Assembly: GCA_029557905.1 (NCBI GenBank) | Contig: JAKQHR010000072.1 | Coordinates: 23,109-87,108 of the forward strand | Direction of reading: 5' to 3' | DNA from: Verrucomicrobiota bacterium | Lineage (GTDB): Bacteria; Verrucomicrobiota; Kiritimatiellia; JAKQHR01 | DNA: 64,000 bases | Part shown: positions 3,993-63,161 of the stretch, piece after piece | Numbering within the stretch: the first letter of the stretch is position 1 | Layout of the letters: every line of letters starts with the position of its first letter | Notes under the pieces: model-generated | Told to the model about the DNA's origin: nothing | The model's database searches: none | Seen by the model: the letters and a program-made list of their open reading frames with translations, nothing else | Translations under genes and position numbers: made by a program

Positions 3993-6035
3993 TCAGCCGC
4001 GTTTTTTTCTTCGACGCGGACGGCTGTAATTCAGGCCGCCGCCTTTCCCGCTTCGCTCCCGGATCACCGGCGCCTTCAATTCCGCCAGCTGGTCGCGCAG
4101 AAACGCCGCGCGCTCGAATTCCAGCGCTGCGGCCGCCTCAAGCATTTCGCGCTCGATGTCTGCGATGACTTCCGCGGTATTATAATCAACTCCGCTCTCG
4201 CGAATCACGCTTTTTTCGACCTCGGCCGCCTCCTCGCGCGTCACGAGACTCTCCTGGATGCTTTTCTGGATGCCCTGCGGCGTGATGTTGTGCTCCGCGT
4301 TGTAGGCCAGCTGAATCTCACGGCGGCGGCGGGTCACATCAATCATCCGTCTCATCGAGTCCGTGATGTTGTCGGCATACATGATCACCTGACCGTTCAC
4401 ATGCCGCGCCGCGCGGCCGGCCGTCTGGATCAGGGAGGTTTCCGAACGCAGAAAGCCTTCTTTGTCCGCATCCAGAATGGCCACAAGCGACACTTCGGGA
4501 AGATCCAGGCCCTCCCGGAGCAGGTTGATGCCGATGAGGCAGTCGAATTCCTTCTTGCGGAGCTGGCGGAGAATCTCGACGCGTTCAATGGCGTCAATCT
4601 CCGAGTGCAGATACTGGACCTTGAGTCCGGTTTCCTGCAGATAGGCCGCCAGATCCTCCGCCGTAAGCTTGGTAAGCGTGGTGACAAGCGTGCGTTCATG
4701 CCGGGTTGCCCGCAAACGCACCTCCTCCATCAAATCGTCAATCTGGTTCGCGAGGGGCCGGACCTCCACTGGCGGATCCAGCAGTCCCGTCGGACGGATA
4801 AGCTGCTGGACCATTTCAGCGGACTGCTCACGCTCAAACGGACCGGGTGTGGCGGACGTGAAAATGGTCTGGCCGGCGGCCTTCATGAACTCGTCGAAGT
4901 TCATGGGCCGGTTGTCCAGCGCGGACGGCAGGCGGAAACCGTGCTCCACAAGCGTGCGCTTGCGGGCCTGGTCGCCGTTGTACATGCCGCGTATTTGCGG
5001 GAGGGTGACATGCGATTCGTCAATGATGGTCAGGAAATCGCCGCGAAAATAGTCCAGCAGCGTGTCCGGCCTTGATCCGGCTTCACGGCCGGACAGATGG
5101 CGTGAATAATTTTCGATCCCCTGGCAGTAGCCGAGTTCCTTCAGCATTTCCATGTCGTATTCCGTGCGCATTTTTATCCGCTGGGCTTCCAGAAGCTTGT
5201 TCTGGCTCTCAAACCAGGCCACCCGCTCGCGCATCTCCTCCAGAATGTTCCCGATCGCCGCCTCCACCTTCGAAAGCGGCATCACAAAATGCTTGGCCGG
5301 GGAAATCGAAATCTCGTCCAGCGAGGCCTCGGAGTTTCCGGTCAGCGGATCAATTCGGCGAATGGCCTCGATCTCGTCGCCGAAAAACTCCACGCGGATG
5401 CCCTTTTTGCTGTAGGAGGGCAGAATATCCACCACATCGCCGCGCACAGAAAATGTGCCCGGAGAATTTTCGTAGTCATTGCGGGAATACTGGATGTCCA
5501 CCAGCCTGCGCAGCACTTCATCGCGGTCGGCGGATTCACCCCGCTTCAGATGCACCAGCATGCTCCGGTAATCCTCCGGAGAGCCCAGCCCGTAGATGCA
5601 CGAGACCGATGCGACGATGATCACATCGTCCCGGTTGATCAGCGAATCCGTTGCCGCCAGCCGGAGGCGTTCAATTTCCGCATTGATGGCCGCATCCTTC
5701 TCAATGAACGTGTCCGTCTGCGGGATATAGGCCTCGGGCTGGTAATAATCGTAGTAGCTGACGAAATATTCGACCGCGTTGTTTGGGAAGAAGCTCTTGA
5801 ACTCGGCGTACAGCTGGGCGGCCAGCGTCTTGTTGTGTGAAATCACCAGCGCGGGCTTGCCCCACCGCGCAATCACATTCGACATCGTAAAGGTTTTGCC
5901 GGAACCAGTCACGCCCTCCAGCGTGATAAACCGGCTCCCCTGCTCCAGCCGGCGGCAGATCTGTTCAATCGCCTCCGGCTGATCACCGGTGGGGCTGTAC
6001 CTGGATTCGATCTGATAAACGGCCTTCTGCGACAT
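3993..6035 (-). CDS. uvrB: excinuclease ABC subunit B
   Basis: [26 protein letters not shown]...GVTGSGKTF...[14 protein letters not shown] aligns end-to-end with E. coli UvrB. The start is set at Met21 of ORF 3993..6095 (cat at 6033-6035). Confidence 0.9.
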
Positions 6036-6118
6036 TGGAACAATATAAATCGCGGGTCCGGCCTCAACAAGCCTCAACCGGCGGGATGCAAACAAAAGGT
6101 TGAACCGCTGCAGCCGGG

Positions 6119-8080
6119 ATGCTAGGTATCGGTCTTCAATTCATGATTACGATTTTTCAGTCTGTTGCGCATCGCCTGTTCGGCCCCTCAGGCGCTCTTC
6201 TGGATGCGAGGGTTCTGTGCGAAGAAAATCTGTGTGAGACCTGCTCTCTGACGGCGAGTTTTCTCCTCGCGCTCGGAGGAGACCGGGATGCGCTGCTGAG
6301 ACTGCAGCGGGCGGAAGGTTCCAATGAATATGCCGGATTTCTCCGCAGGCATCTGGGAACGGTTGAGGAGGAGATTCGCCGCGCCTGTGAATCTCCGGAT
6401 TTCAGGAAACGGCTTCAGGCGCTTGATAAGAATCCATCGGACACCAGCGCACTCCGGATGGTGTTCTTTCCCGAGGGCGCGGGACTGCCGGAAACCCGCG
6501 AAGAAAAAATCGAAGCTCTGCGCCAGAGGAGAACCATACGGATCACAAGCCTCAACCCCAGTCCCCTCTCCGATCCTGTCCGGCAAATGCTGTTCACATC
6601 CAATGTGCTTCTGACGGTGCCCCTGTCCGGCTCGTCGCTTGACGAAATCAACTGCACGGATGAGCTGAAGGCTCGCATTCGCAGTGTTGCAGGCGAAGAG
6701 CAGATGTACTGGTATGATCATCCCATCCCGGTCGGGGTGCGGCCAGAGGCCAATGAAATCCTTTATGGTCTGCGCGGGCTGGACACAGCGGCGGAATTTG
6801 AGCGCGCGCGGGGACTTATGGGCCCCGGAAAAATTGCCTGTGCGCTTTCAGTTTCTGTAACGCACAGGGGGCTTCAGGACATCGCCAGGCAGTACATCGA
6901 GTCAGAAATCCGCAGCGCGGGCGGTTTCCGCAATGTGGATGTTTATGTTTTCACCGAGGCTGACACCAGACGCCTGATCAGAGAAGTGCTCGTCCCGGCC
7001 GGCGGAGATGAGGGGTCCCTGAAAATATTCGGGGTCGATGGCGAATACGGAAGGCACTACAGTTTTCTCAAGGCTGTGGCGGCGCTTTGGCAGGCTGCCG
7101 CAGATCCCGGCGTCCAGGCCACTTTCAAGATCGATCTTGATCAGGTTTTTCCGCAGAAAGAGCTTGTGGAGCAAACGGGAAAATCGGCGTTTGAACACTT
7201 CAAGAGCCCGCTGTGGGGTGCGCACGGACAGGATGCGGACGGATTCCCGGTTGAACTGGGCATGATCGCCGGAGCGCTGGTCAACGAGCGGGACATTGAT
7301 CGGGGAATTTTCACTCCGGATGTCTCCTTCCCGGACGGCCCCGCCGCTCCTGATGAGCGCATCTTCTTCAGCCGAATGACGATGGCCCTTTCAACCCGGG
7401 CCGAGATGATGACGCGATACCGCCCGGACGGCATTGACGGAAAAACGGCATGCATTCAGCGCATCCACGTGACGGGAGGAACAAATGGAATCCGCATTGA
7501 CAGCCTCAGGAAACACCGTCCGTTCACGCCGTCTTTCATCGGCCGGGCCGAGGATCAGTCCTACCTGCTTTCCGTCCTGCTGGAAGAAGGTGAAAAACTC
7601 CGTTATGTTCACAAGGACGGACTGATCATGCGGCATGACAAGGAGGCCTTTGCCGGTGACGCCATTCGGGCCGCATCATTCGGGAACATCATTGGCGACT
7701 ATATCCGCACGCTCTATTTCTCAGAATATGCGCGCGTGCTTGATCCCAGGGGCCTTGAGCGGATCAAGAGCATGGTTGATCCCTTCACCGGCTGCTTCAT
7801 CACCCCCATTCCGGTCATCGTGGTCATGCTGCGGTTCTGCCTGAAGGCTGCCGGGTATTTTCTGGCGGGCGACGGGAAAACCGGAACTGAATTTGTTGAG
7901 GCAAACCATAACCGGCTGGAGCGCGCCATGGCCTTTGCCCGTGAGGAACTGAAGCAGCAGTATGAGCGGGAGCGGGAAGGCTGGAACCGGTATTACGAGC
8001 TGCTTGACCGGCTTCAGCATGAACCGTCGCTGAAAAAGCGCGCCGGCCAAATCATTCAAGACTGCCGTGTCCGGACTTGA
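6119..8080 (+). CDS. large hypothetical protein (653 aa), no recognisable family
   Basis: Long uninterrupted ORF with coherent coding composition. It is divergent from uvrB and convergent with the metalloprotease gene. No signal peptide, TM segment or catalytic motif that I can assign. Confidence 0.5.
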
Positions 8081-8093
8081 ACGGCATCCGGGC

Positions 8094-8182
8094 AAAAAGT
8101 TCCAATGACTGGAATATCCGCCGCAAAAAGTTCCAATGGCTGGAAGTTTTCTGGTCAAAAGTTCCAATGACTGGAACTTTTC
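8094..8182. repeat. REP-like array: 3 tandem copies (period ~31 bp) of a 26-bp palindrome AAAAGTTCCA-ATGAC-TGGAACTTTT
   Basis: Copies start near 8094, 8125 and 8157. Each has 10-bp perfect inverted arms around a 5-nt centre. The array sits between convergent genes (stops at 8080 and 8181) and the third copy overlaps the stop codon of the minus-strand gene. Confidence 0.8.
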
Positions 8183-9032
8183 AATTCAAAAAAGCTTCCA
8201 GTTCTTTTTGCAGCTGATCGGCGCTGTCCATTTCATAATGGATGCGGAAGGCCTCTTCCGCGGACATGCCGTTCATGACATCCAGCGTGAAGGGCATGAT
8301 TTTCTCGGCCGGCTGCCTGAGCATCAGCCAGCCGAAGAGCATTTTGGAGGTCCGGTAGAATGCCTCCACTTCCGCCGGATACTGCGTCGCGGCAAAGAGA
8401 TCAGCCAGCGGATAAAGAACATCCCGCTTTTTGAAGTGAGCCCTTCGGCTTTTCTTGATGCCCTTGAAGGCGGCGTACCCGAATTCCTCATACCATTCGG
8501 CCATGCCCTCGTTCAGCCAGAGCGGCAGGCGCCGGGGAAAGAGCCGGTTGATGACCAAATGCGTCATTTCATGCGCGAGCACACTGCCGCTTTCCGCGGT
8601 GCCGTCCGCCTGTTGCAGAAACATCTCCGGGCCTCTGACTACTGAAAAGGCCCACTCCTCTTTCATGCCGCTCGCGCGGATGAACTCCTGCCAGTCCTTT
8701 GGCGAGCGGAAGATGAAGATGTGAGAACGGACCGCAGGGCCCTGAGCCGGTGCATTCAATTCCTTCGCGATGTGATCGAACAGGAATTCAGCCATGCGCG
8801 CCGCTTTCAGGGCAAAGGTCTTGCGCTCATAATGGTACACAAAGCGCTCCGTCTGCGCGTGCTGCCACCTGATCCCCGGCATCTGCAGAACTTCCCGCCC
8901 GAGAAGCGAGAGGCTGCCGGAGTCCATCTGATCCGGCCCGACTTCCTGAAAATCCGCTTGTGCGGAAACGGCCAGCAGACAGATCATCAGGTTCTTCAGC
9001 ATGCGAAAAGGTTTCCCGGATTGAGGCGGCAC
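8181..9032 (-). CDS. secreted zinc metalloprotease-like protein (HExxH)
   Basis: Signal peptide MLKNLMICLLAVSAQA (the start may be Met11 at 9002). HEMTH plus downstream NEGMAEW resembles a zincin-type active site. Family not assigned. Confidence 0.5.
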   Translation of the reverse strand: MPPQSGKPFRMLKNLMICLLAVSAQADFQEVGPDQMDSGSLSLLGREVLQMPGIRWQHAQTERFVYHYERKTFALKAARMAEFLFDHIAKELNAPAQGPAVRSHIFIFRSPKDWQEFIRASGMKEEWAFSVVRGPEMFLQQADGTAESGSVLAHEMTHLVINRLFPRRLPLWLNEGMAEWYEEFGYAAFKGIKKSRRAHFKKRDVLYPLADLFAATQYPAEVEAFYRTSKMLFGWLMLRQPAEKIMPFTLDVMNGMSAEEAFRIHYEMDSADQLQKELEAFLN

Positions 9033-10453
9033 TGCGGATCGAACAGCCGTTTGAGCCGGCGCATGTCCTCGATCCCCCGCGCTCCCATCATTTTAAGGAG
9101 GAACGGGGTTTTGAGTTTGCCGATTCCGTGTTCTGCCGAAACCGTTCCCCCCATGCGGATCACGGCATCGGCCCATTCCAGATACTGGGCTTTCCCCTGT
9201 TCAAATTGCTTCACGGTGCGGGGAAGGATGTTGACATGCACATGATTGCTCCCGATGTGTCCAAAGATCACATATTCGAGCCCCAGGCGCTCAAGCGATG
9301 CGTGATACAGCGCCATCAGCTCGTCCAGGCGGTCGTCGGGGACGGCCATGTCGGTGCCGAGTTTCGTGATCGCGGGATCGGTTTTCCGGCGTTCATCTAT
9401 CAGAGAGTTGACCGCTTCAGGCAGCGCATGACGGAACAGGCGTATGCGCTCCCGCTCATGATCATCCGTGGCAATCCATGTCCTGTCCTCGCTTCCCCCG
9501 CAGCCGTCCAGCGCTTCGCACATGCGCTCCACCATGCCGGAAGCCTCATCCTCGTCCGCCGCATGATACTCCACATAGACCGCCGTGTGATAATCCGCCG
9601 GCACCTCGGGGGCGCCCTCCAGCCTGTGGCTGCGGAGCAGGTTCAATGAGCAGGAATCAAAAAACTCAATAGACGCGGGTTTGTCCTTCAGTCCGCGGAC
9701 GGCATGAACAAACGCCAGCGCATCGGGTTCTTTTCCGAAGAAGGCCATGACCCCCCAGACGGAAGCGGGCCAGGGCTGCAGCTTGAGGTGCAGCTCGGAA
9801 AAAATGCCCAGCGTGCCTTCCGAACCGATGAACAAATCCAGCAGGTCCATGCTGTCGCGGACAAAATATCCCGAAGCGGTCTTAATGGCCGGAGTGGTAT
9901 AGGAAGGCAGGTCGCCTTCAATTACACGGCCGGATTCCGTTTTCAGCCTGAAATTCCGCCCGGTGGCCATGCACTGGCCGCGGCAGAGCGCGATGACATC
10001 ACCGTCTGCAAGAACAAGGCGGGCGGCGAGGATAGATTCACGCGTGGCCCCGTAGCGAAACGAGCGGGCGCCGGAAGCGTTGCAGGAGGCCATGCCTCCG
10101 ATGGTCGCTGTGGTCTCCGTGGGATCCGGCGCAAAGAAAACATTCCCCCGGCTTTTCAGGTGCGCGCGGATTTCATCCAGCGTCACGCCGGGCTGCACGA
10201 TCAGATCATCCCTGTCCGTGATCGTCTTCATCCGGCTGAGATTCAGGATATGTCCGCCGGAAGGCACAGCCCCGCCCGTTAATCCTGTGCGCGCGCCCTG
10301 TGTGGTGATGCACTGCCCGTTTGCCGCGGCCCAGCGAACGGCATCCGCAATCTCTGCCTCGTTCAGCGGGAATGAAATTGAGTCTGCCGTGCCGGTTTTC
10401 CGCGATTCGTCGCGCAGATAATCGGGCCCGATGTCACTGTGAATCTCCGGCAT
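8996..10453 (-). CDS. FAD-binding oxidoreductase (GlcD / D-lactate dehydrogenase family)
   Basis: FAD-binding PCMH-type N-terminal domain (QGARTGLTGGAVP, IGGMASCNASG) and C-terminal GHIGSNHVHVNIL...AEHGIGKLK typical of FAD-linked oxidases. The start is set at MPEIHSD (alternative upstream start at 10513). Confidence 0.7.
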   Translation of the reverse strand: MPEIHSDIGPDYLRDESRKTGTADSISFPLNEAEIADAVRWAAANGQCITTQGARTGLTGGAVPSGGHILNLSRMKTITDRDDLIVQPGVTLDEIRAHLKSRGNVFFAPDPTETTATIGGMASCNASGARSFRYGATRESILAARLVLADGDVIALCRGQCMATGRNFRLKTESGRVIEGDLPSYTTPAIKTASGYFVRDSMDLLDLFIGSEGTLGIFSELHLKLQPWPASVWGVMAFFGKEPDALAFVHAVRGLKDKPASIEFFDSCSLNLLRSHRLEGAPEVPADYHTAVYVEYHAADEDEASGMVERMCEALDGCGGSEDRTWIATDDHERERIRLFRHALPEAVNSLIDERRKTDPAITKLGTDMAVPDDRLDELMALYHASLERLGLEYVIFGHIGSNHVHVNILPRTVKQFEQGKAQYLEWADAVIRMGGTVSAEHGIGKLKTPFLLKMMGARGIEDMRRLKRLFDPQCRLNPGNLFAC

Positions 10454-11680: not shown

Positions 11681-14600
11681 TTACGGGAGCGTCACCATGG
11701 TGCGGTAATAGCCCGCAGAGCCGTTGTTGGTCACAGAGAGCACAACGGCCCCTCCGGTGCCCGGCAGGTTCAGATTGAGCCGGGTCCAGTTGACCATGCT
11801 TTCCGTCAGATTCGTGCTCCAGACAACATCATAGACCCGGTCGCCTGAAGTGGGCGGGCCTGCTGTGATGTTCAGGACAGTCCTGCCGACGGCGCTGGTG
11901 ATGGTGTTCTGATAGAAGGACCCGTCATCCAGCGGATCCGTGTCGGTAATATATTCGTAATGGTTGCTCTTCCCGTCACCATCGGCATCGTCAGCCGGGT
12001 TGTTGGTCAGACTGGAAAAGCGGTTCCACTCCCAGTCGTCTCCGATGCCGTCCGCGTCCCAGTCGGCCGGCACCACAATAACTGTCGAGTTTGTCACCAC
12101 GCTGCTGGCTTCGCCCTGCCCGTCGTTCGCAACGAACACCACCAGGCTGGTCGAGCCGGCGTCCGATGCGCCGGCGGTCCATGAGAACGTCGTGCCGACA
12201 TAGGTTGCGCCTGCGGGCGCGACGGTGTTGGTCAGCGTCACCGGATCGCTGTCCGGATCGCTGGCGGTCACCTCGAAGTTCGTGTAAGCGCCGACTGGTA
12301 GAATGTGAGGCCCGGGCAGGCTGATGACCGGCGCATGGTTCTCATCCACCTCAACCAGCTTCAAGTACTGAACCAGTTCCCCGTCGTTTGTGATGGAGCC
12401 GCCGGCGGTTCCTCCGTTGAGCTGCACGAATATTCCGTCATTGTACAGCGACGCTCCGCTGATCGGCGAACCCCAGACTTCCGCGGACGCATCACTGGAG
12501 GCAAGATTGCGGACCTGATAAAGCGTTCCGGTGTCGAGACCCAGAAGATCCCACGCGCCGGTCAGATCATAGGTGGCGGAAGCTCCGGTGTGCGCCTCGC
12601 CGTGCCGGAACATCAGCGCAAAGGCCAGCACGACATCCTTGTCGTTCGGCGAAGCATAGGGTTCTTCATATTTCGCCACCGCGAGGATCCTTCCTTCTTC
12701 ACCGCCGCCAACCTTGCTCAAGAAATACCGGTTCTGACTCTGAAGCGCGGGGCTGTTCAAGCGGGCCCAGTTCACGCGGCCGTACCACTGCGCAAGGCCT
12801 TCGGCATTCGGCGGCGGATTCGACCAGACCATGAGCTGGTTCCACTGCTTGAAGTGCGGAATGAACTTGCCGAAGTTTTCCTCATGATCGGTGCGGAAAC
12901 CGTCATAGTACCAGTAGGAGGGGTCGGCATTGTAGTTCTGAATGCCCTGTTCCTGTCCGTAGAAGATCATCGGGATGCCGTCCACGGTCGAAACCGCTCC
13001 GTAGCGGCTGGCGACCAGCCAGCAGTCGTTGTCGGGCAGGACTTCATCGTGCGATGTCAGATTCAGAAGCACCGCGCCGCCGTTATATGCATTGCGCCGG
13101 TCTTCGAGGGCGGAGCGGACCGACCACGAATCGTTGATTTGCGCCTGCGTGAACTGGAAAACCAGGTTTTCATTAAGCACATCAAAATGGCGGTTCGACC
13201 GGTATCCGGGTTTGCCGCCGTCCAGCGTTTCGGCCATGAAAATGAAATTCCATTTCATGGAGCGCGTGCGGTTGATGATGTACTCCCAGGTTTGCGGCGG
13301 GAGCCCCTGCCCGAAGTCGCAGCGGAGCCCGTCAATGCCCCGGTCATCGTCGGCCCGCACAAAGGTGTTGGTGCCGGAATGACCGGTCTTCTTCAGCCAG
13401 TACTCCGTGTAGTATCCGAAATATTTCCACAGATCGATGGTGTCCGCGGACATGCCCGTGTAATCGTAGACATCGTCCTCATTCAGATAATCCCCGTTGT
13501 TGTCGGGATTGTGGCGCACCAGAGCGGAATATTTTCCAAAATAGAATTCGGCCACATCCGCCCATTTGCCGAAATCGCCGCGGTCGGGCGCGGTGGCGAA
13601 ATCGTTGCTGTAGACTGAATGATAATACGTGGCCGGCTCGCCATAGTCGGTCCACAGGGCATACCAGCCGGGCTTGAACCAGCCGATGTGATCGTTTTTG
13701 TTCGTGCAGAATCCCAGATCGAGACCGCCCTGCCCCATGACCGCGTCCCAGGCCGTGTGATTGAACACGCCGTCCAGCATCACGTTCACGGTGCCCACGG
13801 AACCGGTATAGGCATCACACGCGGCCACGAAATTCGTGAACTCCGCCAGCGCGCCCGTTTCCGTTCCGTCCGCGCCGAGATAGGGCGACACGGCATAATA
13901 GTCGCGTGTCGCATAGGGGCTGCCCGGCTCGTATTCGGAGGGGTCGCCCCGGAAGGTCTCCGCGCTGGGATGGATCGGCTGGAACCACAGGCAGTTGGCC
14001 TGGATGTAATTGAGATATTCAAGATTGAACGGGTCGAAGCCGTCGGTGTCGCCTTCCGAGGAGCCCAGCAGGTCGCGGAAGGTGCTGCGGCCCGCCTCGT
14101 CATTATACGTCGCCTCAACAGTCAGAGGGTTGAGTTCGTACATCGTCATCTCCAGCACTTTTTTCGGGGAAACGACGACGGCGTGATCCCGGCGGCCTGC
14201 GGATGAATACCAGTGCCAGGAGCCGGCCGCCATGCCGTTGGTTGAATATCGCGCCGTAAGGCGGTACGCCCCGCACCTGCTCACCGTGCCGGTCCAGACA
14301 TAGGCCCCGCCGCCGACAGGCGTCATCGGATACGCCCTGAAATACGCGCCCGTGTCGTTGGTGGTGATCAGATCGCCCGAAGGCGGCCTGATCCCGTCCG
14401 GAACGCCGTCAGTGTTGTAGTCCGCATCCGCATAGTCGCGCCGGTCGAGATTTGAAAATATCTCCACCTTGTCAAGGTTCAGCGCGCCGGGAACATACGT
14501 CACAACTATCTGCTCCGTGTCGCCGTTCACTTCATCAATGAAGAACTTGGTCGTGGTGTAATCCGCATTGAGCGTGCCCACGGTGAGCTGCTGGGCCCCC

Positions 14601-16195
14601 GCGGTTCCGATTGCGAACGAGAACGTATTGCTGGCTGTTCCCGCTGTGCCGTAGTCGGCATAACGCTCGGTGTCGTTCGTGGTTTTCCACGCGCCGATCT
14701 TGTACTTGATGGTCGTCAGGGACGGCAGGCCGGTCGCGGTTCCCTGCCACCACATGGCGTCGGCATCGGGATAGCTGTCCTCCTCCATGTGATCGAAACT
14801 CATCGCCACGACCTTTGTGGAGGCATTGCCCGCCGCGCCGTAATGCCCGTGCGGCTCGGTGCCGTTGGTGGTGTAATAAACGGCCGCATAATCGGCCCAC
14901 CGGTTGGTGCCGATGCCCTGCGCATAGCCGATCTTGGCCCAGAACTGGGCGCTGGTTCCCGACACCACGCGGTTGTCCGCATGCCAGACAAATTCAGGCG
15001 ACTGCCCGGCGGCGGACGAATAGGTGAAAGTGAAGGGATTGCCCTGCGCGTCACCGGCATCGGCAAAGGTCAGGCTGGAAGCTCCGCTGTTCGTGGTGCC
15101 GATCCAGGTGTCGTCATGATCGTTGTACGTAATGAGCAGATAATACTGCACCTCATCGGATGCCGCATAGGTTCCGGCCGGAATCAGGCCGACCCAGTAC
15201 TTGTTGTTCGAGTCCACGCTGTCAAAGGAAAGACTGTTCGAACTCCACGAGCCGGCGTCCGTCTTTTTATGGAAGAGCCAGCCGCCCGTCTGGTCGCCGG
15301 GATTGCCCGCCCCCTGATACTGGCTGCCGTTGTATATGTAGACCGCCTGATTTGTGGAGGGATCTCCGGCCGGATTGCGCATGGTCGCGGTGAAGGGCTC
15401 TGTGTTCGTCGGGATATGCCAGCAGTTTCCGAGATTGGCCGGAGGAGTTCCAACCGAATACTGGTAGTTTGTGGCGCCGGATTTCTTCCCGCGCAGCGTG
15501 CACAGATCAAAATCGGCCGTGATGATATTGGAAGGCATGGTTGAGGTCAGAACATAATACTCAATGACTGACCCCGTCGGACTGGCCGGAATCGCGGCGG
15601 TGTAGTTCGTGGAGCTTCCGGCGGCCTGCGCCGTGAGGTAACTGTTCGTCCATGCGTTCTTCGTGTAGCGCACCCAGACATTCTCCTGCGCGCTTTTGGC
15701 CGCGCTGAGCTGGATGGTGACCGTCACCGCATTGGTGGCGGCCGTGTCATGATTGTCGGAGACCGCCAGCACCGATACCGGGCTGCCCTCCGTTCCCATG
15801 ATAACATAGGGCCGGTCCCACCACTCATATGTTCCCTTCAGGTTGAACGTGTACCGCCATCCGCTGGTTTCGCTGAAGGAAAGATCGGAGGGGTCGCCGC
15901 CGTCATTGATGCGGGCCTGGCCGATGGTGGAGTTGACGGCGGCGTTGGTTGAGTAGGCGGCCTTGTATCCCCACTGCGGATTCCAGTTGCCGCTTTGATC
16001 AAACTTGAGGCCGGATGTCGCCCGCGTGGCCGTGGAAGTGATGGTGACCTTGTAGATGCTCCCGAAATCGGTGTCGGCGGTCATCCAGTTGGTGCCCCAC
16101 CCGTTGATGTCGCCGCGCGGGGTTTCGGCAAAAAGCCCCTGAACCGCGCAGAACGCCGCTGTCAAAACAACATGCCGCAGTGCCCTCTTTTTCAT
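11681..16195 (-). CDS. secreted multidomain glycoside hydrolase family 13 enzyme (alpha-amylase/pullulanase-like, about 1500 aa)
   Basis: GH13 catalytic signatures NVMLDGVFNHTAWD and GIDGLRCDFGQGLP...FMAETLDG. Long flanking beta-rich regions are probably carbohydrate-binding or Ig-like modules. The C-terminus has Asp-rich DxDxDG-type repeats. The start is set at ATG 16195 (MKKRALRHVVLTAAFCAVQGLFA signal peptide) rather than the TTG at 16339 called by the ORF track. Confidence 0.8.
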   Translation of the reverse strand: MKKRALRHVVLTAAFCAVQGLFAETPRGDINGWGTNWMTADTDFGSIYKVTITSTATRATSGLKFDQSGNWNPQWGYKAAYSTNAAVNSTIGQARINDGGDPSDLSFSETSGWRYTFNLKGTYEWWDRPYVIMGTEGSPVSVLAVSDNHDTAATNAVTVTIQLSAAKSAQENVWVRYTKNAWTNSYLTAQAAGSSTNYTAAIPASPTGSVIEYYVLTSTMPSNIITADFDLCTLRGKKSGATNYQYSVGTPPANLGNCWHIPTNTEPFTATMRNPAGDPSTNQAVYIYNGSQYQGAGNPGDQTGGWLFHKKTDAGSWSSNSLSFDSVDSNNKYWVGLIPAGTYAASDEVQYYLLITYNDHDDTWIGTTNSGASSLTFADAGDAQGNPFTFTYSSAAGQSPEFVWHADNRVVSGTSAQFWAKIGYAQGIGTNRWADYAAVYYTTNGTEPHGHYGAAGNASTKVVAMSFDHMEEDSYPDADAMWWQGTATGLPSLTTIKYKIGAWKTTNDTERYADYGTAGTASNTFSFAIGTAGAQQLTVGTLNADYTTTKFFIDEVNGDTEQIVVTYVPGALNLDKVEIFSNLDRRDYADADYNTDGVPDGIRPPSGDLITTNDTGAYFRAYPMTPVGGGAYVWTGTVSRCGAYRLTARYSTNGMAAGSWHWYSSAGRRDHAVVVSPKKVLEMTMYELNPLTVEATYNDEAGRSTFRDLLGSSEGDTDGFDPFNLEYLNYIQANCLWFQPIHPSAETFRGDPSEYEPGSPYATRDYYAVSPYLGADGTETGALAEFTNFVAACDAYTGSVGTVNVMLDGVFNHTAWDAVMGQGGLDLGFCTNKNDHIGWFKPGWYALWTDYGEPATYYHSVYSNDFATAPDRGDFGKWADVAEFYFGKYSALVRHNPDNNGDYLNEDDVYDYTGMSADTIDLWKYFGYYTEYWLKKTGHSGTNTFVRADDDRGIDGLRCDFGQGLPPQTWEYIINRTRSMKWNFIFMAETLDGGKPGYRSNRHFDVLNENLVFQFTQAQINDSWSVRSALEDRRNAYNGGAVLLNLTSHDEVLPDNDCWLVASRYGAVSTVDGIPMIFYGQEQGIQNYNADPSYWYYDGFRTDHEENFGKFIPHFKQWNQLMVWSNPPPNAEGLAQWYGRVNWARLNSPALQSQNRYFLSKVGGGEEGRILAVAKYEEPYASPNDKDVVLAFALMFRHGEAHTGASATYDLTGAWDLLGLDTGTLYQVRNLASSDASAEVWGSPISGASLYNDGIFVQLNGGTAGGSITNDGELVQYLKLVEVDENHAPVISLPGPHILPVGAYTNFEVTASDPDSDPVTLTNTVAPAGATYVGTTFSWTAGASDAGSTSLVVFVANDGQGEASSVVTNSTVIVVPADWDADGIGDDWEWNRFSSLTNNPADDADGDGKSNHYEYITDTDPLDDGSFYQNTITSAVGRTVLNITAGPPTSGDRVYDVVWSTNLTESMVNWTRLNLNLPGTGGAVVLSVTNNGSAGYYRTMVTLP

Positions 16196-16340
16196 AATGA
16201 TTCCGTCTCCCGCTGATCCTCTGGAACTACTGTCCACAAGATGCATCAAAAACGGACAGTCTTCAAACCTAATCCGCGAGCATCTCGCGGGATCACCGGG
16301 ACTAAATCTGCCGGACCGCTTCCGCCTGCCGTGATGCAAA

Positions 16341-16364
16341 ATAGTACTAATTTAGTACTATTTA
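16341..16364. promoter_or_regulatory. predicted operator: AT-rich palindrome ATAGTACTA-att-TAGTACTATTTA (11-3-11 with flanks), second copy of the rrf2-promoter motif
   Basis: 21 of 24 positions match the motif at 62466-62489. Perfect inverted repeat AAATAGTACTA/TAGTACTATTT. It lies in the divergent GH13/acd intergenic region. Confidence 0.55.
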
Positions 16365-16486
16365 GATCCGCACGGTGCAGTTTTGCATTTTCCCGCGCGC
16401 GCCCCCTTCATTTCCCCTTTTTTTTCATTTTTCGCGGCCGCAAGTGCCGCCGGGCTGATATTTTCATGAAAATTCGAAAATTCAAG

Positions 16487-16600
16487 GATTTTTGGCCTTT
16501 TTTGACGTTTTTGGGCCGATTTTTGGTCATTTTTTGCATTTTTTGGACGTTTTGGGGCTGTTTTTCGCGTTTTTTTGAGTTTTTTACATGGTATGGCCGC
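16487..16600. repeat. phased T-tract element (about 10 T5-7 tracts at 10-11 bp period; predicted intrinsically curved DNA), copy 1
   Basis: atttttggcc ttttttgacg tttttgggccg atttttggtc attttttgc attttttggacg ttttggggctg tttttcgcg tttttttgag ttttttaca. A core of about 40 bp is nearly identical to the element at 27.3 kb. It is immediately upstream of acd. Confidence 0.7.
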
Positions 16601-16662
16601 CGGGGCAATCGTTGCGTGAAAATAGTTTTTTGTGTATAAAAGAAGGTCAGGAAGTCGGGTGC

Positions 16663-18750
16663 ATGATGCCAAGCGGAAAAACTGCAGAAGGACCGCGTCG
16701 CAAGAACCTGGACGGGCTTTTCAAACCCCGGAGCGTGGCCATGGTCGGGGCGTCAGCCGATCCCCATAAAATCGGCCACCAGATTTTGAGAAATATCGTC
16801 GAAGGCGGTTTTGCCGGAGAGGTGTATCCCGTCAATGCCTGCGCCGAGGCCGTTCTGGGCCTGAAGACTTTTCCTTCCGTTGCGGCCATCCCCCACCCGG
16901 TTGATTTCGCCGTGATTTCCATCCCCGCAACCGCCGTCGCCGCCTGCATGGAGGAATGCGGACAGAAAGGCGTTCAGGCGGTCGCCGTGATCACTTCCGG
17001 ATTCGCGGAGGCGGGCAACATTGAAGAGGAGCACAAGCTCAAGGCGATTGCGGACCGGTACGGCATGGCGCTGGTCGGGCCCAATATTCTCGGCGTGGTC
17101 TATTCCCCCTCCCGGCTCAACGCGACCTTCGGCCCGCGCGACATGGCCAGCGGCGGCACGGCCTTTGTCTCCCAGAGCGGCGCGCTGGCCATCGGCCTGA
17201 TGGGCTGGGCGGTGATGGAGAAGATGGGCATGAGCGCGCTGGTCAGCATCGGCAACAAGGCCGATGTGGATGAGCGGGATCTGATTGAGTACTTCAATCA
17301 TGATGAACACGTGAAGGTGACCCTCGTTTATATGGAAGGCCTGAAGAACGGGCGCGATTTCATGCAGACCAGAATCAGCAAGCCGGTCGTGATGCTGAAA
17401 GTCGGGCGCACGCAGCGCGGCGCCAGGGCCGCGGCCTCGCACACCGGGTCGCTCGCGGGTTCGGATCAGGTCTTTGACGCCGCCTTCCGCCAGCTCGGGA
17501 TGCTCCGCGCGGACACATTCCGCGAGGCGTTCAACTGGGCCCGGGCGCTTGCCCTGCCCCCGATGCCCGGCAGGAAGGTGCTGATCATCACCAATGGCGG
17601 CGGGATCGGCGTCCGCGCCACGGACGAATGCGAGAAGGCGGGGCTGCACCTTCTGGATGATCCCGAATGGCTGGAAGAAACATTCCGGCCCGTCATGCCG
17701 TCCTACGGGAGCACGAAAAATCCAATTGATCTCACCGGCGGGGCCGCGGCGGACAAATACAGCCAGGCCTTCAAGTCCGCGGTGATCTCCGACAAGTTCG
17801 ATGCGCTGCTTGTGCTCTACTGCGAGACGGTGATCACCGACCCGCTGGCCATTGCGCAGGGGGTTTCCCGGGAATATGAGGCCGCAGGCCGCCGCAAGCC
17901 CGTCGTGGCCGCCATGGTCGGCGGAGAACGCTCGCGGCAGGCCATTCATTTCCTGAATCAGCAGGGCGTTCCCGCCTTCACATCCGTGGCCGATGCGGCC
18001 TCATCGCTGAACGCCCTGGCCCAATGGCATGAAATCTCCAGCCGCGAGAAAGATGATCCGGAGTGCTCCCAGGCGCCCCGGGAGGCCGTCAGGATTGTTG
18101 AGCAGGCCCGAAAAGAGGGCCGTTCCGCCCTGCTCGAGCACGAGGCGCGGCAGGTGCTGGAACTCTGCGGCGTTCCCGTGCCGCCCGCGGCTTTCGCGCG
18201 CGATCTGGATGAGGCGAAGCTTAAGGCCGCAGCGCTTTATCCGCTGGCGATGAAGATTGCCTCGCCGCAGATCATTCACAAAAGCGATGCCGGCGGAGTG
18301 GCCGTCAACATCCGGGACGAAAGCGAGCTGGCTGAAAAATACAGCGCCATGATGAAAACCGTTTCGGAGCGCGTCCCGGATGCGCAGATCGAGGGCGTGA
18401 ACCTTGTGCAGATGGCGGAGGGAATCGAATGCGCGGCGGGGCTGAGCAGCGATCCGCAGTTCGGGCCCGTGGTCATGTTCGGGCTGGGCGGCGTGCTGGT
18501 GGAGGCGCTGAAAGACGTGGCCTTCCGGATTGTGCCCTTCGGCCGCGTGGAGGCCGAACGCCTGATTGGCGACATCAAAGCCCGGAACATACTCGACGGA
18601 TTCCGGGGGGCCAGGGCGGACCGGCCCTCGCTGGTGCAAATCCTGTGCGCCATCCAGAAACTGGCGGGTCTTGTGAAGGAAGTGGACATCAACCCGATCC
18701 GCTCAAGTGAAAAAGGCAGTTTCGCCGTGGATGCCCGGATTATTCTCTAG
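16663..18750 (+). CDS. acetate--CoA ligase (ADP-forming), fused alpha/beta subunits (NDP-forming acyl-CoA synthetase family)
   Basis: N-terminal CoA-binding domain (PRSVAMVGASADPHKIGHQILRNI), succinyl-CoA synthetase-like His domain (ASHTGSLAGS) and C-terminal ATP-grasp. The start is set at MMPSGKT (atg at 16663). Confidence 0.75.
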   Translation: MMPSGKTAEGPRRKNLDGLFKPRSVAMVGASADPHKIGHQILRNIVEGGFAGEVYPVNACAEAVLGLKTFPSVAAIPHPVDFAVISIPATAVAACMEECGQKGVQAVAVITSGFAEAGNIEEEHKLKAIADRYGMALVGPNILGVVYSPSRLNATFGPRDMASGGTAFVSQSGALAIGLMGWAVMEKMGMSALVSIGNKADVDERDLIEYFNHDEHVKVTLVYMEGLKNGRDFMQTRISKPVVMLKVGRTQRGARAAASHTGSLAGSDQVFDAAFRQLGMLRADTFREAFNWARALALPPMPGRKVLIITNGGGIGVRATDECEKAGLHLLDDPEWLEETFRPVMPSYGSTKNPIDLTGGAAADKYSQAFKSAVISDKFDALLVLYCETVITDPLAIAQGVSREYEAAGRRKPVVAAMVGGERSRQAIHFLNQQGVPAFTSVADAASSLNALAQWHEISSREKDDPECSQAPREAVRIVEQARKEGRSALLEHEARQVLELCGVPVPPAAFARDLDEAKLKAAALYPLAMKIASPQIIHKSDAGGVAVNIRDESELAEKYSAMMKTVSERVPDAQIEGVNLVQMAEGIECAAGLSSDPQFGPVVMFGLGGVLVEALKDVAFRIVPFGRVEAERLIGDIKARNILDGFRGARADRPSLVQILCAIQKLAGLVKEVDINPIRSSEKGSFAVDARIIL

Positions 18751-27305: not shown

Positions 27306-27423
27306 GATTTTTCACCGTTTTGGGCATTTTCGGGCATTTTTTGACGTTTTTAGGCCGTTTTTGACCATTTTTTGGCCTTTTAGGGCCATTTTTCATCATT
27401 TTTGAGGCCTTTTCGGCCTGCCA
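27306..27423. repeat. phased T-tract element (about 11 T4-6 tracts at 10-11 bp period), copy 2
   Basis: atttttcaccg ttttgggca ttttcgggca ttttttgacg tttttaggccg tttttgacca ttttttggcc ttttagggcca tttttcatca tttttgaggcc ttttcggcc. It shares ttttttgacgtttttRggccg...tttttgRNcatttttt with the 16.5 kb copy. Confidence 0.7.
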
Positions 27424-59603: not shown

Positions 59604-60383
59604 TCAAATCGCCTTCTGCGAAAGAACATCTCCGGTCAGACTCATGACCGCCTCTTCAATGACCAGATCTCTGCGGCCGCATCTTTCCGCGGCAGCCCGA
59701 ACCATCATGGTGAGCCCCCCGCAGCAGGGCACCTGCATCCGGACCACAATCACTTTGGGGATGGTGGGCTCTGAAAATATGTCGGCCATTTTTTCGACAT
59801 ATCCCTCCGTGCGGTCCAGTTTGGGGCAGGCCACAACGATCCCCCTGCCCCGGAGGAAACGCCAGTGTATGTCCGCCGAAGCGATCGGCCCGCAGGTGCT
59901 CATCACCACCAGTTCCCGGTTTTTGAAGAACGGCGCGCCGGGCTGCACCAGATGAAGCTGAACAGGCCACTGCTGCAGTTCCGACGGGATGGCCGTCGGC
60001 ATTTGCGCATTTGCGGCAACGGCCTGCTTCGCGGCCGGGGCTTCCGGCACACGCATGCGCATGCCGGGACAACCGCCGGACGGAGCCAGCCCATGCTTCT
60101 TCCCGGCCTCATCAAAGCGGGCCACGGCAGCAGGGCCCTCGGTTGCCGCCACATGTTCGCGGGTGGCGGCGAAGTCGAAGGCGTCCGCCTCGCGCTCTTC
60201 AATGGTCAGAGCTCCGGTCGGACACTCTCCAATGCAGTCTCCGAATCCGTCGCAGAACTGCTCCTTGACCAGCTTCGCCTTGCCGTTGACGATCTTCAAT
60301 GCGCCCTCTGCGCAGGATGTGACACATTCGCCGCATCCGTTGCAGAGGTCCTCATTGATCCTGATAATCTTTCGCTTCGCCAT
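59604..60383 (-). CDS. 4Fe-4S ferredoxin-domain protein, probable electron-transfer partner of Hcp
   Basis: N-terminal double CxxCxxCxxxC (CNGCGECVTSC ... CDGFGDCIGEC). C-terminal extension of unknown function. Its ATG abuts the hcp stop. Confidence 0.6.
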   Translation of the reverse strand: MAKRKIIRINEDLCNGCGECVTSCAEGALKIVNGKAKLVKEQFCDGFGDCIGECPTGALTIEEREADAFDFAATREHVAATEGPAAVARFDEAGKKHGLAPSGGCPGMRMRVPEAPAAKQAVAANAQMPTAIPSELQQWPVQLHLVQPGAPFFKNRELVVMSTCGPIASADIHWRFLRGRGIVVACPKLDRTEGYVEKMADIFSEPTIPKVIVVRMQVPCCGGLTMMVRAAAERCGRRDLVIEEAVMSLTGDVLSQKAI

Positions 60384-60384
60384 A

Positions 60385-62034
60385 TCACTTCCCGGCCATC
60401 ATGGCCTCGACATCCGCCTGCACCTCGCCGGTGGGCTTGATGTCAAAATTGTCCACCAGCACCTTGGCCACCGCGGGCGAGAGAAACGCCGGCAGCGTCG
60501 GCCCCAGCCGGATTCCCTTCACCCCCAGATGCAGCAGCGCCAGCAGCACGGCCACGGCCTTCTGCTCGTACCAGGCGATGTCGAAAGACAACGGAAGATC
60601 GTTGATGGATTCCAGTCCGAAGGCCTCCTTCAGTTTCAGCGCGATGACCGCCAGCGAATAGCTGTCGTTGCACTGCCCGGCATCCAGAACACGCGGGATC
60701 CCGCCGATATCGCCAAGGTCCAGCTTGTTGTAGCGGTATTTCGCGCAGCCCGCGGTCAAAATGATCGTGTCCTTCGGCAGGGCCTCGGCCACTTCGGTGA
60801 AATAGTTCCGGGATTTCTGGCGCCCGTCGCATCCGGCCATCACCACAAAACGTTTGATCGCTCCGGACTTTACGGCCTCCACCACCTTGCCGGCGACAGC
60901 CATCACCTGATTATGAGCGAAGCCGCCGACGATTTCGCCGTTTTCCAGCTCCTGCGGAGGCGCGCATTTCTTTGCCTGCGCGATGAGCGGGGAGAAGTCC
61001 TTCTGTTTTCGCGGTTTCCGGTCAGGAATATGCTTCGTGCCCGGCCAGCCGGCCATGCCTGTCGTGTAGAAACGATCCTTGTAGCTGTCCTTCACCGGAA
61101 TGATGCAGTTGGTCGTCAGCAGGATCGGCCCGTTGAATGAGGCGAATTCCTTGTCCTGAAGCCACCAGCTTCCGCCGTAGTTTCCGGCCAGATGCTTGTA
61201 TTTCTTGAAGGCCGGATAGTAATGGCACGGAAGCATTTCGCCGTGTGTATAGACATCCACGCCCGTGCCCTCGGTCTGCTGCAGGAGCTCGTCCATATCC
61301 TTCAGGTCGTGGCCGGAAATCAGGATGCCCGGATTCCTGCGCACCCCGGTTGACACTTTCGTGATCTCCGGACTGCCGTAGGTCTCCGTGTTGGCCTTAT
61401 CGAGAAGCGCCATGGTCGTGACGGCAATTTCGCCCGCCTTCAGCACCATGCCCACCATCTCGTCCACGCTGAGTTTCTGCGTGGTTGAAATCAGTCCGTC
61501 CACGATGAACCGGTAAATGGCATCATCCTCGTACCCCAGCACCAGCGCATGATCAGCGTAGGCTGCAATGCCCTTGAGGCCGATGATCAGAAGCTGCTGC
61601 AGCGACCGCACATCCTCGTTCGGCTCGGAGGGAATGCCGACCAGAAGAGCCTTCACCTGAAGGTCTTCCCCCTTTTTCGGAGCCCAGGTCGCTGCGTCAT
61701 GCAGTTTCTGTGCCCACGTCGCGTCTTTCGCCTCGCATTCCTTGCGAAGCGTGTCGCGCTGAGCAACAGCCTCCAAAATGAGGCGGCTGATGACCGCATC
61801 ATCAAAATTGGCGTTGGTGATCGTGGCGAACAGCCCGCGGATAATTGTCCGGCCGACCTCCCGGTCATAGCGGCCGAGTTCATCGGCCTTTTTGCCGGCA
61901 ATGGCCAGTCCTTTCAGAGTGTGGATCAGAAGATCCTGCAGATTCGCCGTGGGCTCCTGTTTCCCGCATACCCCGCGGACGGTGCAACCCTGGTTTTTCG
62001 CGGTTTCCTGACACTGGAAGCAGAACATGCTCAT
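60385..62034 (-). CDS. hcp: hybrid cluster protein (hydroxylamine reductase)
   Basis: [26 protein letters not shown]-terminal Cys motif and full-length similarity to the prismane/Hcp family (549 aa). Confidence 0.9.
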
Positions 62035-62450
62035 GACTTTCCCTTTCTCTTTTTTGGTTGTTTGTAGATTTCAGCTAAATTGGTTTTGTTGAAAAAATCG
62101 TTCAGGCGCTTCTGCAGAATGCAGACGGAGCCCTTCATCGGGCATTTCCCGCTGTACGGGCACGCATAGCCCTTCCTGTTGCAGACGTTCATGTACACCG
62201 GACCCTGAATGACTTCAACCACCCGGCCCAGACTGATCCTGCGCGAGGGCATCGCCAGCAGATATCCCCCCTGCACGCCGCGAACAGCCTTGACGATTCC
62301 GTCATTCGCCAGCTTCTTCATTATTTTGCGGATGGATGCCAGCGGCGCCTTGCAGTCGCGCGCGAGGGCCATCGTGTCCGTGCACTCCCCCTGGTCCAGC
62401 AGATGCAGCGCCCGCAGTGCATAATCAGTCTCTCTTTTCAGTATTTCCAT
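62031..62450 (-). CDS. Rrf2-family transcriptional regulator (NsrR/IscR-like, Cys-containing)
   Basis: N-terminal w[14 protein letters not shown]...[17 protein letters not shown] and C-terminal Cys ligands (C..C.....C). Directly upstream of hcp with a 4-nt overlap. Confidence 0.8.
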
Positions 62451-62465
62451 GGATGCTCCTTTAAT

Positions 62466-62489
62466 ATAGTACTAAAATAGTACTATTTA
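62466..62489. promoter_or_regulatory. predicted Rrf2 operator: ATAGTACTA-aaa-TAGTACTAT (9-3-9 palindrome) 16-39 bp upstream of the rrf2 start
   Basis: Perfect inverted arms whose half-site TAGTACTA is itself palindromic. AT-rich in a 62% GC background. Matches the site at 16341-16364. Confidence 0.6.
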
Positions 62490-62522
62490 AACGCGATGTC
62501 AACCGGGGCCTTGAAATTTGTT

Positions 62523-62894
62523 TCAGGATATCTTTTTCGGCCACGCCCTGAGGATGCTCATGACCTCCCGGACCCAGGTGCAGACGCACTGGGCCGGACA
62601 CCGCCCGTCCTGTCCCAGATGCGCGCAGTAGCCCGGGCAGTCCGGTCCCCCGTACCGGCATTCCTGCCAGACCGGCCCGTCGTACAAATCCCGGAATTCC
62701 TCCACGGAAACGGCGAGCGTGGTGGTGCACTGCATGATGTGATTGAAAAGGAAATAGCCCAGATGCCGCCCCTCAAACATCGGCTGATATCCCAGAAACT
62801 CCACACGGGAATCGGCCAGGAACGAATCCCTGTCCGGCCAGCTGGTGCCGCACGTCGTGCAGTTCTTGAAACAATGGTCCTTCGCGCTCTTCAC
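62523..62894 (-). CDS. Cys-rich small protein (123 aa), hypothetical
   Basis: CFKNCTTC (Cx3Cx2C) near the N-terminus and CPGYC...CPAQCVC at the C-terminus. Preferred over the overlapping plus-strand ORF 62496..63188, which reads through the repeat array. Confidence 0.4.
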   Translation of the reverse strand: MKSAKDHCFKNCTTCGTSWPDRDSFLADSRVEFLGYQPMFEGRHLGYFLFNHIMQCTTTLAVSVEEFRDLYDGPVWQECRYGGPDCPGYCAHLGQDGRCPAQCVCTWVREVMSILRAWPKKIS

Positions 62895-62965: not shown

Positions 62966-63057
62966 GCTCATGACCCGAAAAGTTCCAGTCATTGGAAGTT
63001 TTCAGACCAAAAGTTCCAATCATTGGAACTTTTCAGACAGAAAGTTCCAGTCATTGG
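62966..63057. repeat. REP-like array, 3 tandem copies (period 31 bp) of AAAAGTTCCAGTCATTGGAACTTTT (inverse orientation of the 8.1 kb array)
   Basis: Copies start near 62968, 62999 and 63030. The core is the reverse complement of the 8094-8182 units. It lies between two minus-strand genes. Confidence 0.8.
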
Positions 63058-63161
63058 AAGTTTTGCGCAAGGGCGGAATTTCAGCAGGACGCGGACTGCC
63101 ACAGGGCCCGAACACGGCCGCATATTCGCGAAGGAGCGGCGGATGTATTCGCGCGGATATC

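Follow-up and report, generated by a model that had tools for sequence, protein, structure and literature searches.

A perfect 9-3-9 palindrome, ATAGTACTA-N3-TAGTACTAT, has exactly two matches in the window, the whole 64-kb stretch of DNA analysed here, and comparison across genomes shows that a broad branch of Rrf2-family regulators uses it as an operator. One copy (site 2) sits at the promoter of an rrf2-hcp operon, and the other (site 1) lies between the gene for a giant secreted GH13-like protein and acd. Taken as a whole, our best explanation is that site 1 is a high-affinity site for the Rrf2 protein encoded in the window and that, as the weakest step, binding there may hinder leftward transcription toward the GH13-like gene. 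We give this full reading a probability of about 0.5. The two copies are as follows.

16341-16361, no strand assigned: site 1, perfect 9-3-9 palindrome ATAGTACTA-ATT-TAGTACTAT, putative second Rrf2 operator
62466-62486, no strand assigned: site 2, perfect palindrome ATAGTACTA-AAA-TAGTACTAT, predicted autoregulatory operator of rrf2

Both sites are perfect inverted repeats, ATAGTACTAATTTAGTACTAT at site 1 and ATAGTACTAAAATAGTACTAT at site 2, and they carry the same base at all 18 arm positions. Over 24 nt, where the sequence-only reading had counted 21 shared positions, the two in fact agree at 22 and differ only at two bases of the spacer. That reading had also judged chance recurrence to be very unlikely, and here it was right: a search of the window with up to three mismatches returned sites 1 and 2 only, and the same search of 100 dinucleotide shuffles returned nothing. 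Chance recurrence, with zero copies expected, is therefore ruled out. The G+C content of the window, previously put at 62%, computes to about 58%. Relaxing the scan to six mismatches yielded no third site besides one self-overlap, and there are no weaker sites before other genes in the window or in the 8 kb past its end. Segmental duplication is ruled out as well, because the likeness between the two sites ends 2-3 nt beyond the arms and the flanks share nothing past that point. The recurrence of the palindrome is real and far beyond chance.

Site 2 lies 15 nt before the ATG of rrf2 (62450, minus strand), in agreement with its earlier placement just upstream of the gene. The features of this locus are listed here.

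62031-62450, minus strand: rrf2, encoding a 139-aa Rrf2-family regulator with conserved cysteines C90, C97 and C103 (PF02082 matches residues 4-130, winged helix and dimerisation helix included, at 85.2 bits; cut-off 30)
60385-62034, minus strand: hcp, encoding a hybrid cluster protein (hydroxylamine/NO reductase; NF003658, 834.5 bits; Prismane)
59604-60383, minus strand: 4Fe-4S ferredoxin-like gene (Fer4, AF_0155 type), downstream of hcp
62474-62502, minus strand: predicted rrf2 promoter from a promoter scan, TTGACA-17-TATTTT, with the -10 at the palindrome centre
62523-62894, minus strand: ORF for a 123-aa Cys-rich protein, directly upstream of the rrf2 promoter (synteny in L001, L003, L004 and L114-L117)

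This is the only Rrf2 gene within the 64-kb window. The hcp gene overlaps the rrf2 stop codon, and further downstream the same strand carries genes for a cupin, a rubredoxin, a PEP-utilising enzyme and a pyridine-nucleotide oxidoreductase, in a cluster that also includes rubrerythrin, desulfoferrodoxin, ferritin and thioredoxin genes. The host is an uncultured member of the Kiritimatiellia that is present in many activated-sludge and digester assemblies. At the rrf2 promoter (62502-62474 in the direction of reading), TTGAC stands 16 nt ahead of the palindrome, which means that the palindrome centre, TA-WWW-T, is the predicted -10 box at promoters of this kind.

To place the palindrome in a wider context, we scanned 185,579 species genomes with the query ATAGKACTANNNTAGTMCTAT and obtained at least 103 sites on at least 102 stretches. 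Among the matches listed, an Rrf2 ORF lies within 800 bp of 56 of the 103 exact sites, and the linked rrf2 always reads away from the palindrome, with its start mostly 1-38 bp downstream. Also among the matches listed, the palindrome heads rrf2-sufBCD operons in Proteobacteria and Acidobacteria, is followed directly by sufB in some Acidobacteria, and heads rrf2-hcp operons in Planctomycetota and Kiritimatiellia. The spacing to the -35 recurs with it. Planctomycetota with the palindrome-rrf2-hcp arrangement have TTGAC exactly 16 nt ahead of the palindrome, as in the window, and this spacing is found in at least 13 loci other than the window and also in the orthologous loci L001, L003 and L004. 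In these three orthologues the operator keeps its position within a 72-bp spacer before rrf2, in the order TTGAC[A/G], 10 nt, ATAG[G/T]ACTA-WWW-T..., ribosome-binding site and ATG. The variant in L004, ATAGGACTATTTTAGTCCTAT, is a perfect palindrome too, since the T>G change of one arm has its symmetric counterpart, A>C, in the other.

The variation among these sites indicates how the palindrome is read. The 56 rrf2-linked sites among the matches listed comprise 28 with G/C arms, 8 with T/A arms and 20 with mixed arms, and the spacer consists only of A/T in 51 of them. Arms that vary independently around an A/T spacer argue for a dimer that reads two DNA half-sites, combined with a -10 function, and against an RNA hairpin. 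A hairpin acting as a processing site, stabiliser or terminator is in fact highly improbable. A 9-bp stem could form, and at three loci of the Kiritimatiellia genome JBFXGK01 the palindrome follows an A-rich tract in a 3' region, but the mixed arms at 20 of the 56 listed sites would mispair, it is the sequence and not the pairing that is conserved across phyla, no U-run directly follows the stem, and at rrf2 the palindrome coincides with a promoter. Rfam gave no match at its gathering threshold for site 1 or site 2, and the sole hit with E<1 was to a Listeria sRNA model, at 16 bits. We conclude from these comparisons that ATAG[G/T]ACTA-WWW-TAGT[C/A]CTAT is the predicted cognate operator of a broad Rrf2 branch; a literature search for the exact motif together with Rrf2 found nothing. 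Of the earlier proposal that the palindrome belongs to an NsrR-like Rrf2 regulator, the tie to Rrf2 is borne out by its position at rrf2 promoters (56 of the 103 sites listed), while the NsrR label is imprecise.

The regulator itself carries the marks of an Fe-S protein. In an alignment with ScNsrR (S. coelicolor NsrR), residues C90, C97 and C103 in the C-terminal part fall on the cluster ligands C93, C99 and C105, and these three cysteines are invariant in 11 palindrome-linked Rrf2 proteins, as are T8, D9, Y10, K42 and the GxxGG wing. On the basis of the conserved cysteines, the protein is predicted to be of the Fe-S-cluster-binding type. It nevertheless falls below the cut-off of every curated Rrf2 equivalog model. 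Membership is rejected for NsrR (NF008240, 39.2 bits against 182) and for IscR (TIGR02010, 53.4 bits against 207.55; NF008110, 38.7 bits against 275). Its best-scoring equivalog model is that of the SUF regulator (TIGR02944, suf_reg_Xantho), and this too is rejected, with 70.5 bits against 110.65 and with hcp rather than sufBCD as the next gene. True TIGR02944 members that sit beside the palindrome in Proteobacteria and Acidobacteria score 125-158 bits against the same cut-off of 110.65, and those in L009, L017, L019, L068 and L078 stand directly behind it. The previous label of an NsrR/IscR-like regulator is thus imprecise, as the protein fails the NsrR and IscR models and the operator departs from the NsrR consensus.

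Comparison with known systems points in the same direction. The consensus operator of NsrR, gATGyAT-N5-ATrCATc (PMC1274295), is unrelated to ATAGTACTA-N3-TAGTACTAT. What the window system shares with NsrR is an Rrf2 repressor of the Fe-S type (predicted, in the window), a genetic link to hcp and the three aligned cysteines, with NO or redox as the likely common physiological signal. A better match for the operator is RisR of Myxococcus xanthus, a [4Fe-4S] Rrf2 protein of group IS6 with three Cys ligands, whose holo form represses isc and suf by promoter overlap and whose DNase-footprinted motif is T(t/g)GAC-N7-GTCC(t/a) with AT-rich flanks (PMC9973013). Group IS6 is otherwise unstudied and spans Nitrospirae, Acidobacteria and Proteobacteria (PMC9973013), and these are phyla in which the palindrome stands before rrf2. 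The RisR motif forms the core of the G/C variant of our palindrome, GGAC-TAWWWTA-GTCC. The palindrome has the corresponding GAC-N7-GTC core, AT-rich flanks and overlap with the promoter at its -10, and the G/C variant GGAC-N7-GTCC occurs in the orthologues L001 and L004 and among the exact sites listed. The two systems differ in their targets, as RisR controls the isc and suf operons whereas the window Rrf2 is linked to hcp and oxidative-stress genes, and the T/A half-site of the window (GTAC; GTAC-N7-GTAC) is absent from the RisR description. The likeness to RisR is drawn from the operator motif and the published description, not from protein sequence.

Two other regulators resemble the window system in part. 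The IscR type 1 site, ATASYYGACTRWWWYAGTCRRSTAT (PMC3899308), has the same central GACTR-WWW-YAGTC, a 3-bp A/T spacer and outer ATA/TAT, but its arms are 11 nt long, compared to 9 nt in the window palindrome; holo-form binding and autorepression through promoter overlap would be further points of likeness. HcpR does the same job in anaerobes, controlling hcp and an adjacent ferredoxin gene (PMC1274295), but it belongs to the CRP/FNR family and its operator is of the TTGAC-N4-GTCAA type. Judged by its sequence, the window operator is of the RisR/SUF-regulator type and not of the NsrR type. At its own promoter the system probably behaves as RisR or IscR does, and toward hcp it probably fills the role that NsrR or HcpR holds elsewhere. 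By analogy with RisR, IscR and NsrR, a cluster-loaded Rrf2 dimer would block RNA polymerase at the rrf2 promoter, and damage to the cluster by NO or oxidants would free Rrf2 and turn on rrf2, hcp, the ferredoxin gene and the oxidative-stress genes downstream. An operator is now defined for a widespread, almost unstudied Rrf2 branch, and in PVC bacteria an Rrf2 with RisR/SUF-regulator DNA specificity appears to serve as a local regulator of hcp and an oxidative-stress cluster.

Site 1 lies in a different setting, between two divergent genes.

11681-16195, minus strand: gene for a giant secreted GH13-like protein of 1504 aa, with a weak Pfam Alpha-amylase match and a signal peptide (gene calls L118-L126)
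16489-16585, plus strand: phased T-tract block with a period of ~10.3 bp, predicted curved DNA, kept upstream of acd in L005
16612-16640, plus strand: predicted acd promoter, TTGCGT-17-TATAAA (TTGCGC-17-TATAAA in L005)
16663-18750, plus strand: acd, encoding an ADP-forming acetate--CoA ligase family protein of 695 aa

The start of the GH13-like gene is placed at ATG 16195 by its signal peptide, MKKRALRH, and by gene calls in ten assemblies. The longest ORF for this gene (11681-16339, minus strand) opens at TTG 16339, up to 2 nt from the palindrome. With the GH13 start at 16195 and the acd start at 16663, site 1 is 145 nt from the first ATG and 301 nt from the second. No -35 stands at the canonical distance from site 1 on either strand (there is no TTGAC at -16), and neither consensus nor relaxed scans found a sigma-70-like promoter overlapping it. 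Across the spacer, the scans returned only the acd promoter, which is ~250 bp from site 1 and past the phased T-tract block, and, on the minus strand, one weak candidate at 16608-16581. At site 1 this strand offers no -10-like hexamers other than the palindrome centre and the TATTTT next to it. It also carries two hairpins between site 1 and the GH13 start, CCGCGAGATGCTCGCGG and ACTGTCC...GGACAGT, at 16274-16290 and about 16220-16250, of which the CCGCGAGATGCTCGCGG hairpin is missing from the spacer of the sister species.

Within the species, site 1 is invariant. It is identical in 11 other assemblies (12 of 12 with the window), and the spacer is near-identical in 11 of the 12, namely the window and ten others. 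One 99% strain has 15 differences in the 390-nt spacer and an intact site 1, so that in this single divergent strain 0 changes fall in the 21-nt site against ~0.8 expected, a difference that is not significant. Outside the species the site is decayed or absent. In the nearest species (L005 and L110, with GH13 and acd at 85% identity) it has decayed; L005 retains one half-site in decayed form, CATGAATATcAGGACTA / ATAGTCCTgATATTCATG, ~140-150 bp ahead of the GH13 ATG, and in both L005 and L110 the half-site keeps the same distance to that ATG as site 1. GH13 orthologues at 70% and 54% identity (L111-L113) have no palindrome site, and they also lack the acd neighbour and the T blocks. Upstream of the GH13 and acd orthologues, an intact copy is absent, and a decayed half-site is found in one sister species only. 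These orthologues, together with the scan of the window and the 8 kb beyond it, rule out site 1 as a conserved regulon member. By sequence comparison, any link it has to the GH13/acd region is specific to the species.

The spacer has also been rearranged. At L005, where acd is 85% identical, the acd promoter and the phased T-tract block are kept and the palindrome is absent. There, 4.8 kb with three genes separates GH13 from acd, inserted precisely where the palindrome position gives way to the T block, which makes the 467-bp GH13/acd spacer of the window (16196-16662) a synteny breakpoint. The L005 insert (5222-10000) contains a 226-aa ORF, a Phenol_MetA_deg-like gene and a P-type ATPase gene with its own T block.

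Such a record invites the view that site 1 has no regulatory function, being either a relic or a neutral sequence of recent origin that is bound to decay, as happened in the sister species. The decay in L005 and L110, the absence from more distant GH13 orthologues and the lack of a promoter overlapping site 1 all fit this view. We consider it quite improbable, as the 18/18 match is beyond chance, the site is intact in 12 of 12 assemblies including the strain whose flanking spacer has diverged, and a perfect site would in any case still titrate the regulator.

Because its arms match those of site 2 at 18 of 18 positions, site 1 is quite probably bound by the window Rrf2 (62031-62450). What such binding does is far less certain. 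The sequence-only reading had proposed that the regulator also controls the GH13-like gene and/or acd, and the first half of this idea, a credible predicted binding site for Rrf2 in the GH13/acd region, remains sound. Control of either gene fares worse: site 1 matches the regulator's own operator, but it neither overlaps nor adjoins a promoter, the acd promoter being so far off, and it is decayed or absent in orthologues. Of the equivalent extra sites in JBFXGK01, described below, three lie between convergent genes, where there is no initiation to control. Any effect of site 1 on the GH13-like gene is therefore doubtful, and one on acd is decidedly unlikely. If we had to guess, the GH13-like gene would be the likelier target, because its start is nearer, the relic half-site accompanies it in the sister species, and the -10-like hexamers are on its strand.

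The reading we favor can be spelled out as a sequence of steps for site 1. The same Rrf2 that acts at its own promoter would occupy site 1, given the 18/18 match of the arms, and would hinder leftward transcription toward the GH13-like gene. This last step is the weakest and is our best guess. Rrf2 might occlude a weak promoter assisted by the A-tracts, with the palindrome centre or the adjoining TATTTT as its -10, or it might act as a roadblock in the GH13 leader. If site 1 is functional, it would be an unusual, species-specific regulon member, and a secreted enzyme that degrades polysaccharides would be tied to Fe-S/NO sensing in an uncultured member of the Kiritimatiellia from wastewater.

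A further feature of site 1 recurs in a related genome. The Kiritimatiellia MAG JBFXGK01, whose Rrf2 is 74% identical to that of the window, has at least five extra perfect palindromes (L010, L040, L050, L057 and L107), and all five of those listed adjoin a phased T-tract block on one side. In the window, the block at 16489-16585 is made up of ten T4-7 tracts, and the DNA is T-rich from ~16380. At least seven T4+/A4+ runs are found within 250 nt on one side of all six sites (site 1 and the five in JBFXGK01), compared to 1.7% of background windows. Three of the five JBFXGK01 sites lie between convergent genes (ROK/DUF3999, DUF2007/exonuclease-like and HEAT/ResIII), with an A-tract block right after the stop codon. 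The half-site variant of the extra sites follows that of the genome's own rrf2 operator, being T/A in the window genome and G/C in JBFXGK01.

This last correspondence bears on the idea that site 1 is bound by another protein, for example a SUF/ISC-type, RisR-like Rrf2 paralogue encoded elsewhere. The palindrome is common to divergent SUF regulators, which makes shared specificity among Rrf2 paralogues plausible: an identical palindrome serves TIGR02944-type regulators that are 24-30% identical to the window Rrf2, and it stands directly before sufB in Acidobacteria. Even so, we allow this idea only a slim chance, since a single Rrf2 gene lies within the 64 kb, the nifS/nifU cluster beside acd has no palindrome, and in two genomes the extra sites carry the half-site variant of the hcp-linked operator. 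The window Rrf2 remains our preferred ligand for site 1.

Two copies of a 259-bp module, 87% identical to each other, lie on either side of a type II CRISPR-Cas9 locus in JBFXGK01, which suggests that the CRISPR-Cas9 island inserted at, or travels with, the palindrome/T-block module. The copies (L050 1365-1619 and L107 1016-1273; JBFXGK010000001.1, about 209.4-217.3 kb) flank as direct repeats a locus composed of a tracrRNA-like region, cas9 and an array of 36-nt repeats. The cas9 of L098, with 87% aa identity to that of L050, also has a palindrome at its border, just past a tracrRNA-like terminator and beside hsdM (type I restriction-modification methylase). This palindrome (L098 3367-3387, between cas9 and hsdM) is the same as site 1 over 26 nt, and its contig comes from a bin labelled Pseudomonadota, yet it shares Kiritimatiellia-type repeats.

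The coupling of palindrome and T block is strong but not obligatory. T blocks without a palindrome occur at 27308-27413 of the window, in L005 and in L105, and palindromes without a T block occur at site 2 and in L051, L098 and L105. The blocks are ~100 bp long, built of units like TTTTTGGCCN with T4-7 every ~10.3 bp, and are predicted to be intrinsically curved. Besides the two in the window (16489-16585 and 27308-27413), they are found in L005 (581-657, 7097-7142 and 9822-9919), L105 (5104-5148 and 6502-6588), L010 (5654-5761), L057 (2367-2454), L050 (1524-1579) and L107 (1126-1212). They stand upstream of promoters (acd, P-type ATPase and ABC permease) and between convergent genes, and they seem restricted to one Kiritimatiellia clade. 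Among the matches listed, the non-rrf2 Kiritimatiellia sites show no functional theme and no nitrosative-stress genes; the neighbours listed are MATE, ABC permease, cas9, hsdM, ROK, DUF3999, HEAT protein, ResIII, HAD hydrolase and hicAB. The genes that flank the JBFXGK01 modules have no orthologues in the window.

Several roles can be envisaged for the operator/T-tract module, including a curved-DNA upstream element for divergent promoters, a boundary or insulator, and an operator-spreading repeat. Site 1 might then be a lineage-specific composite element, the palindrome plus a ~100-bp T block, with an architectural or genome-plasticity role, to which Rrf2 may or may not bind. It could form a boundary or insulate by means of its curved DNA, carry a promoter in portable form, or act as a hotspot for recombination where islands border other DNA. 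The T/A runs at six of six sites against the 1.7% background, the three JBFXGK01 sites directly after stop codons of convergent genes, the module copies on each side of the CRISPR-Cas9 locus, the palindrome at the orthologous L098 cas9 border and the L005 insert between palindrome position and T block all speak for it. Against it, each component occurs without the other, the palindrome clearly serves as an Rrf2 operator in several phyla, we saw no transposase, terminal repeats or target duplications, and a 3-bp spacer is too short for the core of a tyrosine recombinase. On balance, we regard such an element as unlikely. A variant that keeps Rrf2 in a central part is more speculative and commands little confidence. 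Here a clade-specific composite, possibly mobile module would bring the redox/NO-sensing Fe-S Rrf2 to curved DNA that borders variable regions (the CRISPR-Cas9 island, the restriction-modification locus and the rearranged GH13/acd spacer), where it would respond to stress as an architectural element, an insulator or a portable switch for promoters and not as a classical gene-specific repressor. The pairing of the operator with phased T tracts is in any case a concrete, testable oddity and the only unusual aspect of the system.

A second repeat family borders the rrf2-hcp locus. The 123-aa Cys-rich ORF (62523-62894), which has no Pfam or NCBIfam match, is kept directly upstream of rrf2 in all Kiritimatiellia loci examined. 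Upstream of it, at 62978-63070, a 25-nt palindrome, AAAAGTTCCAATCATTGGAACTTTT, forms three tandem copies 31 bp apart. This array is kept in three species and is probably an operator array of a second regulator. It is found at ~9451 in L001, ~7455 in L003, ~9392-9469 in L114-L117 and ~3430-3475 in L098, where a repeat lies ~35 nt from the Rrf2 palindrome, and it recurs at a second place in the window, 8098-8178.
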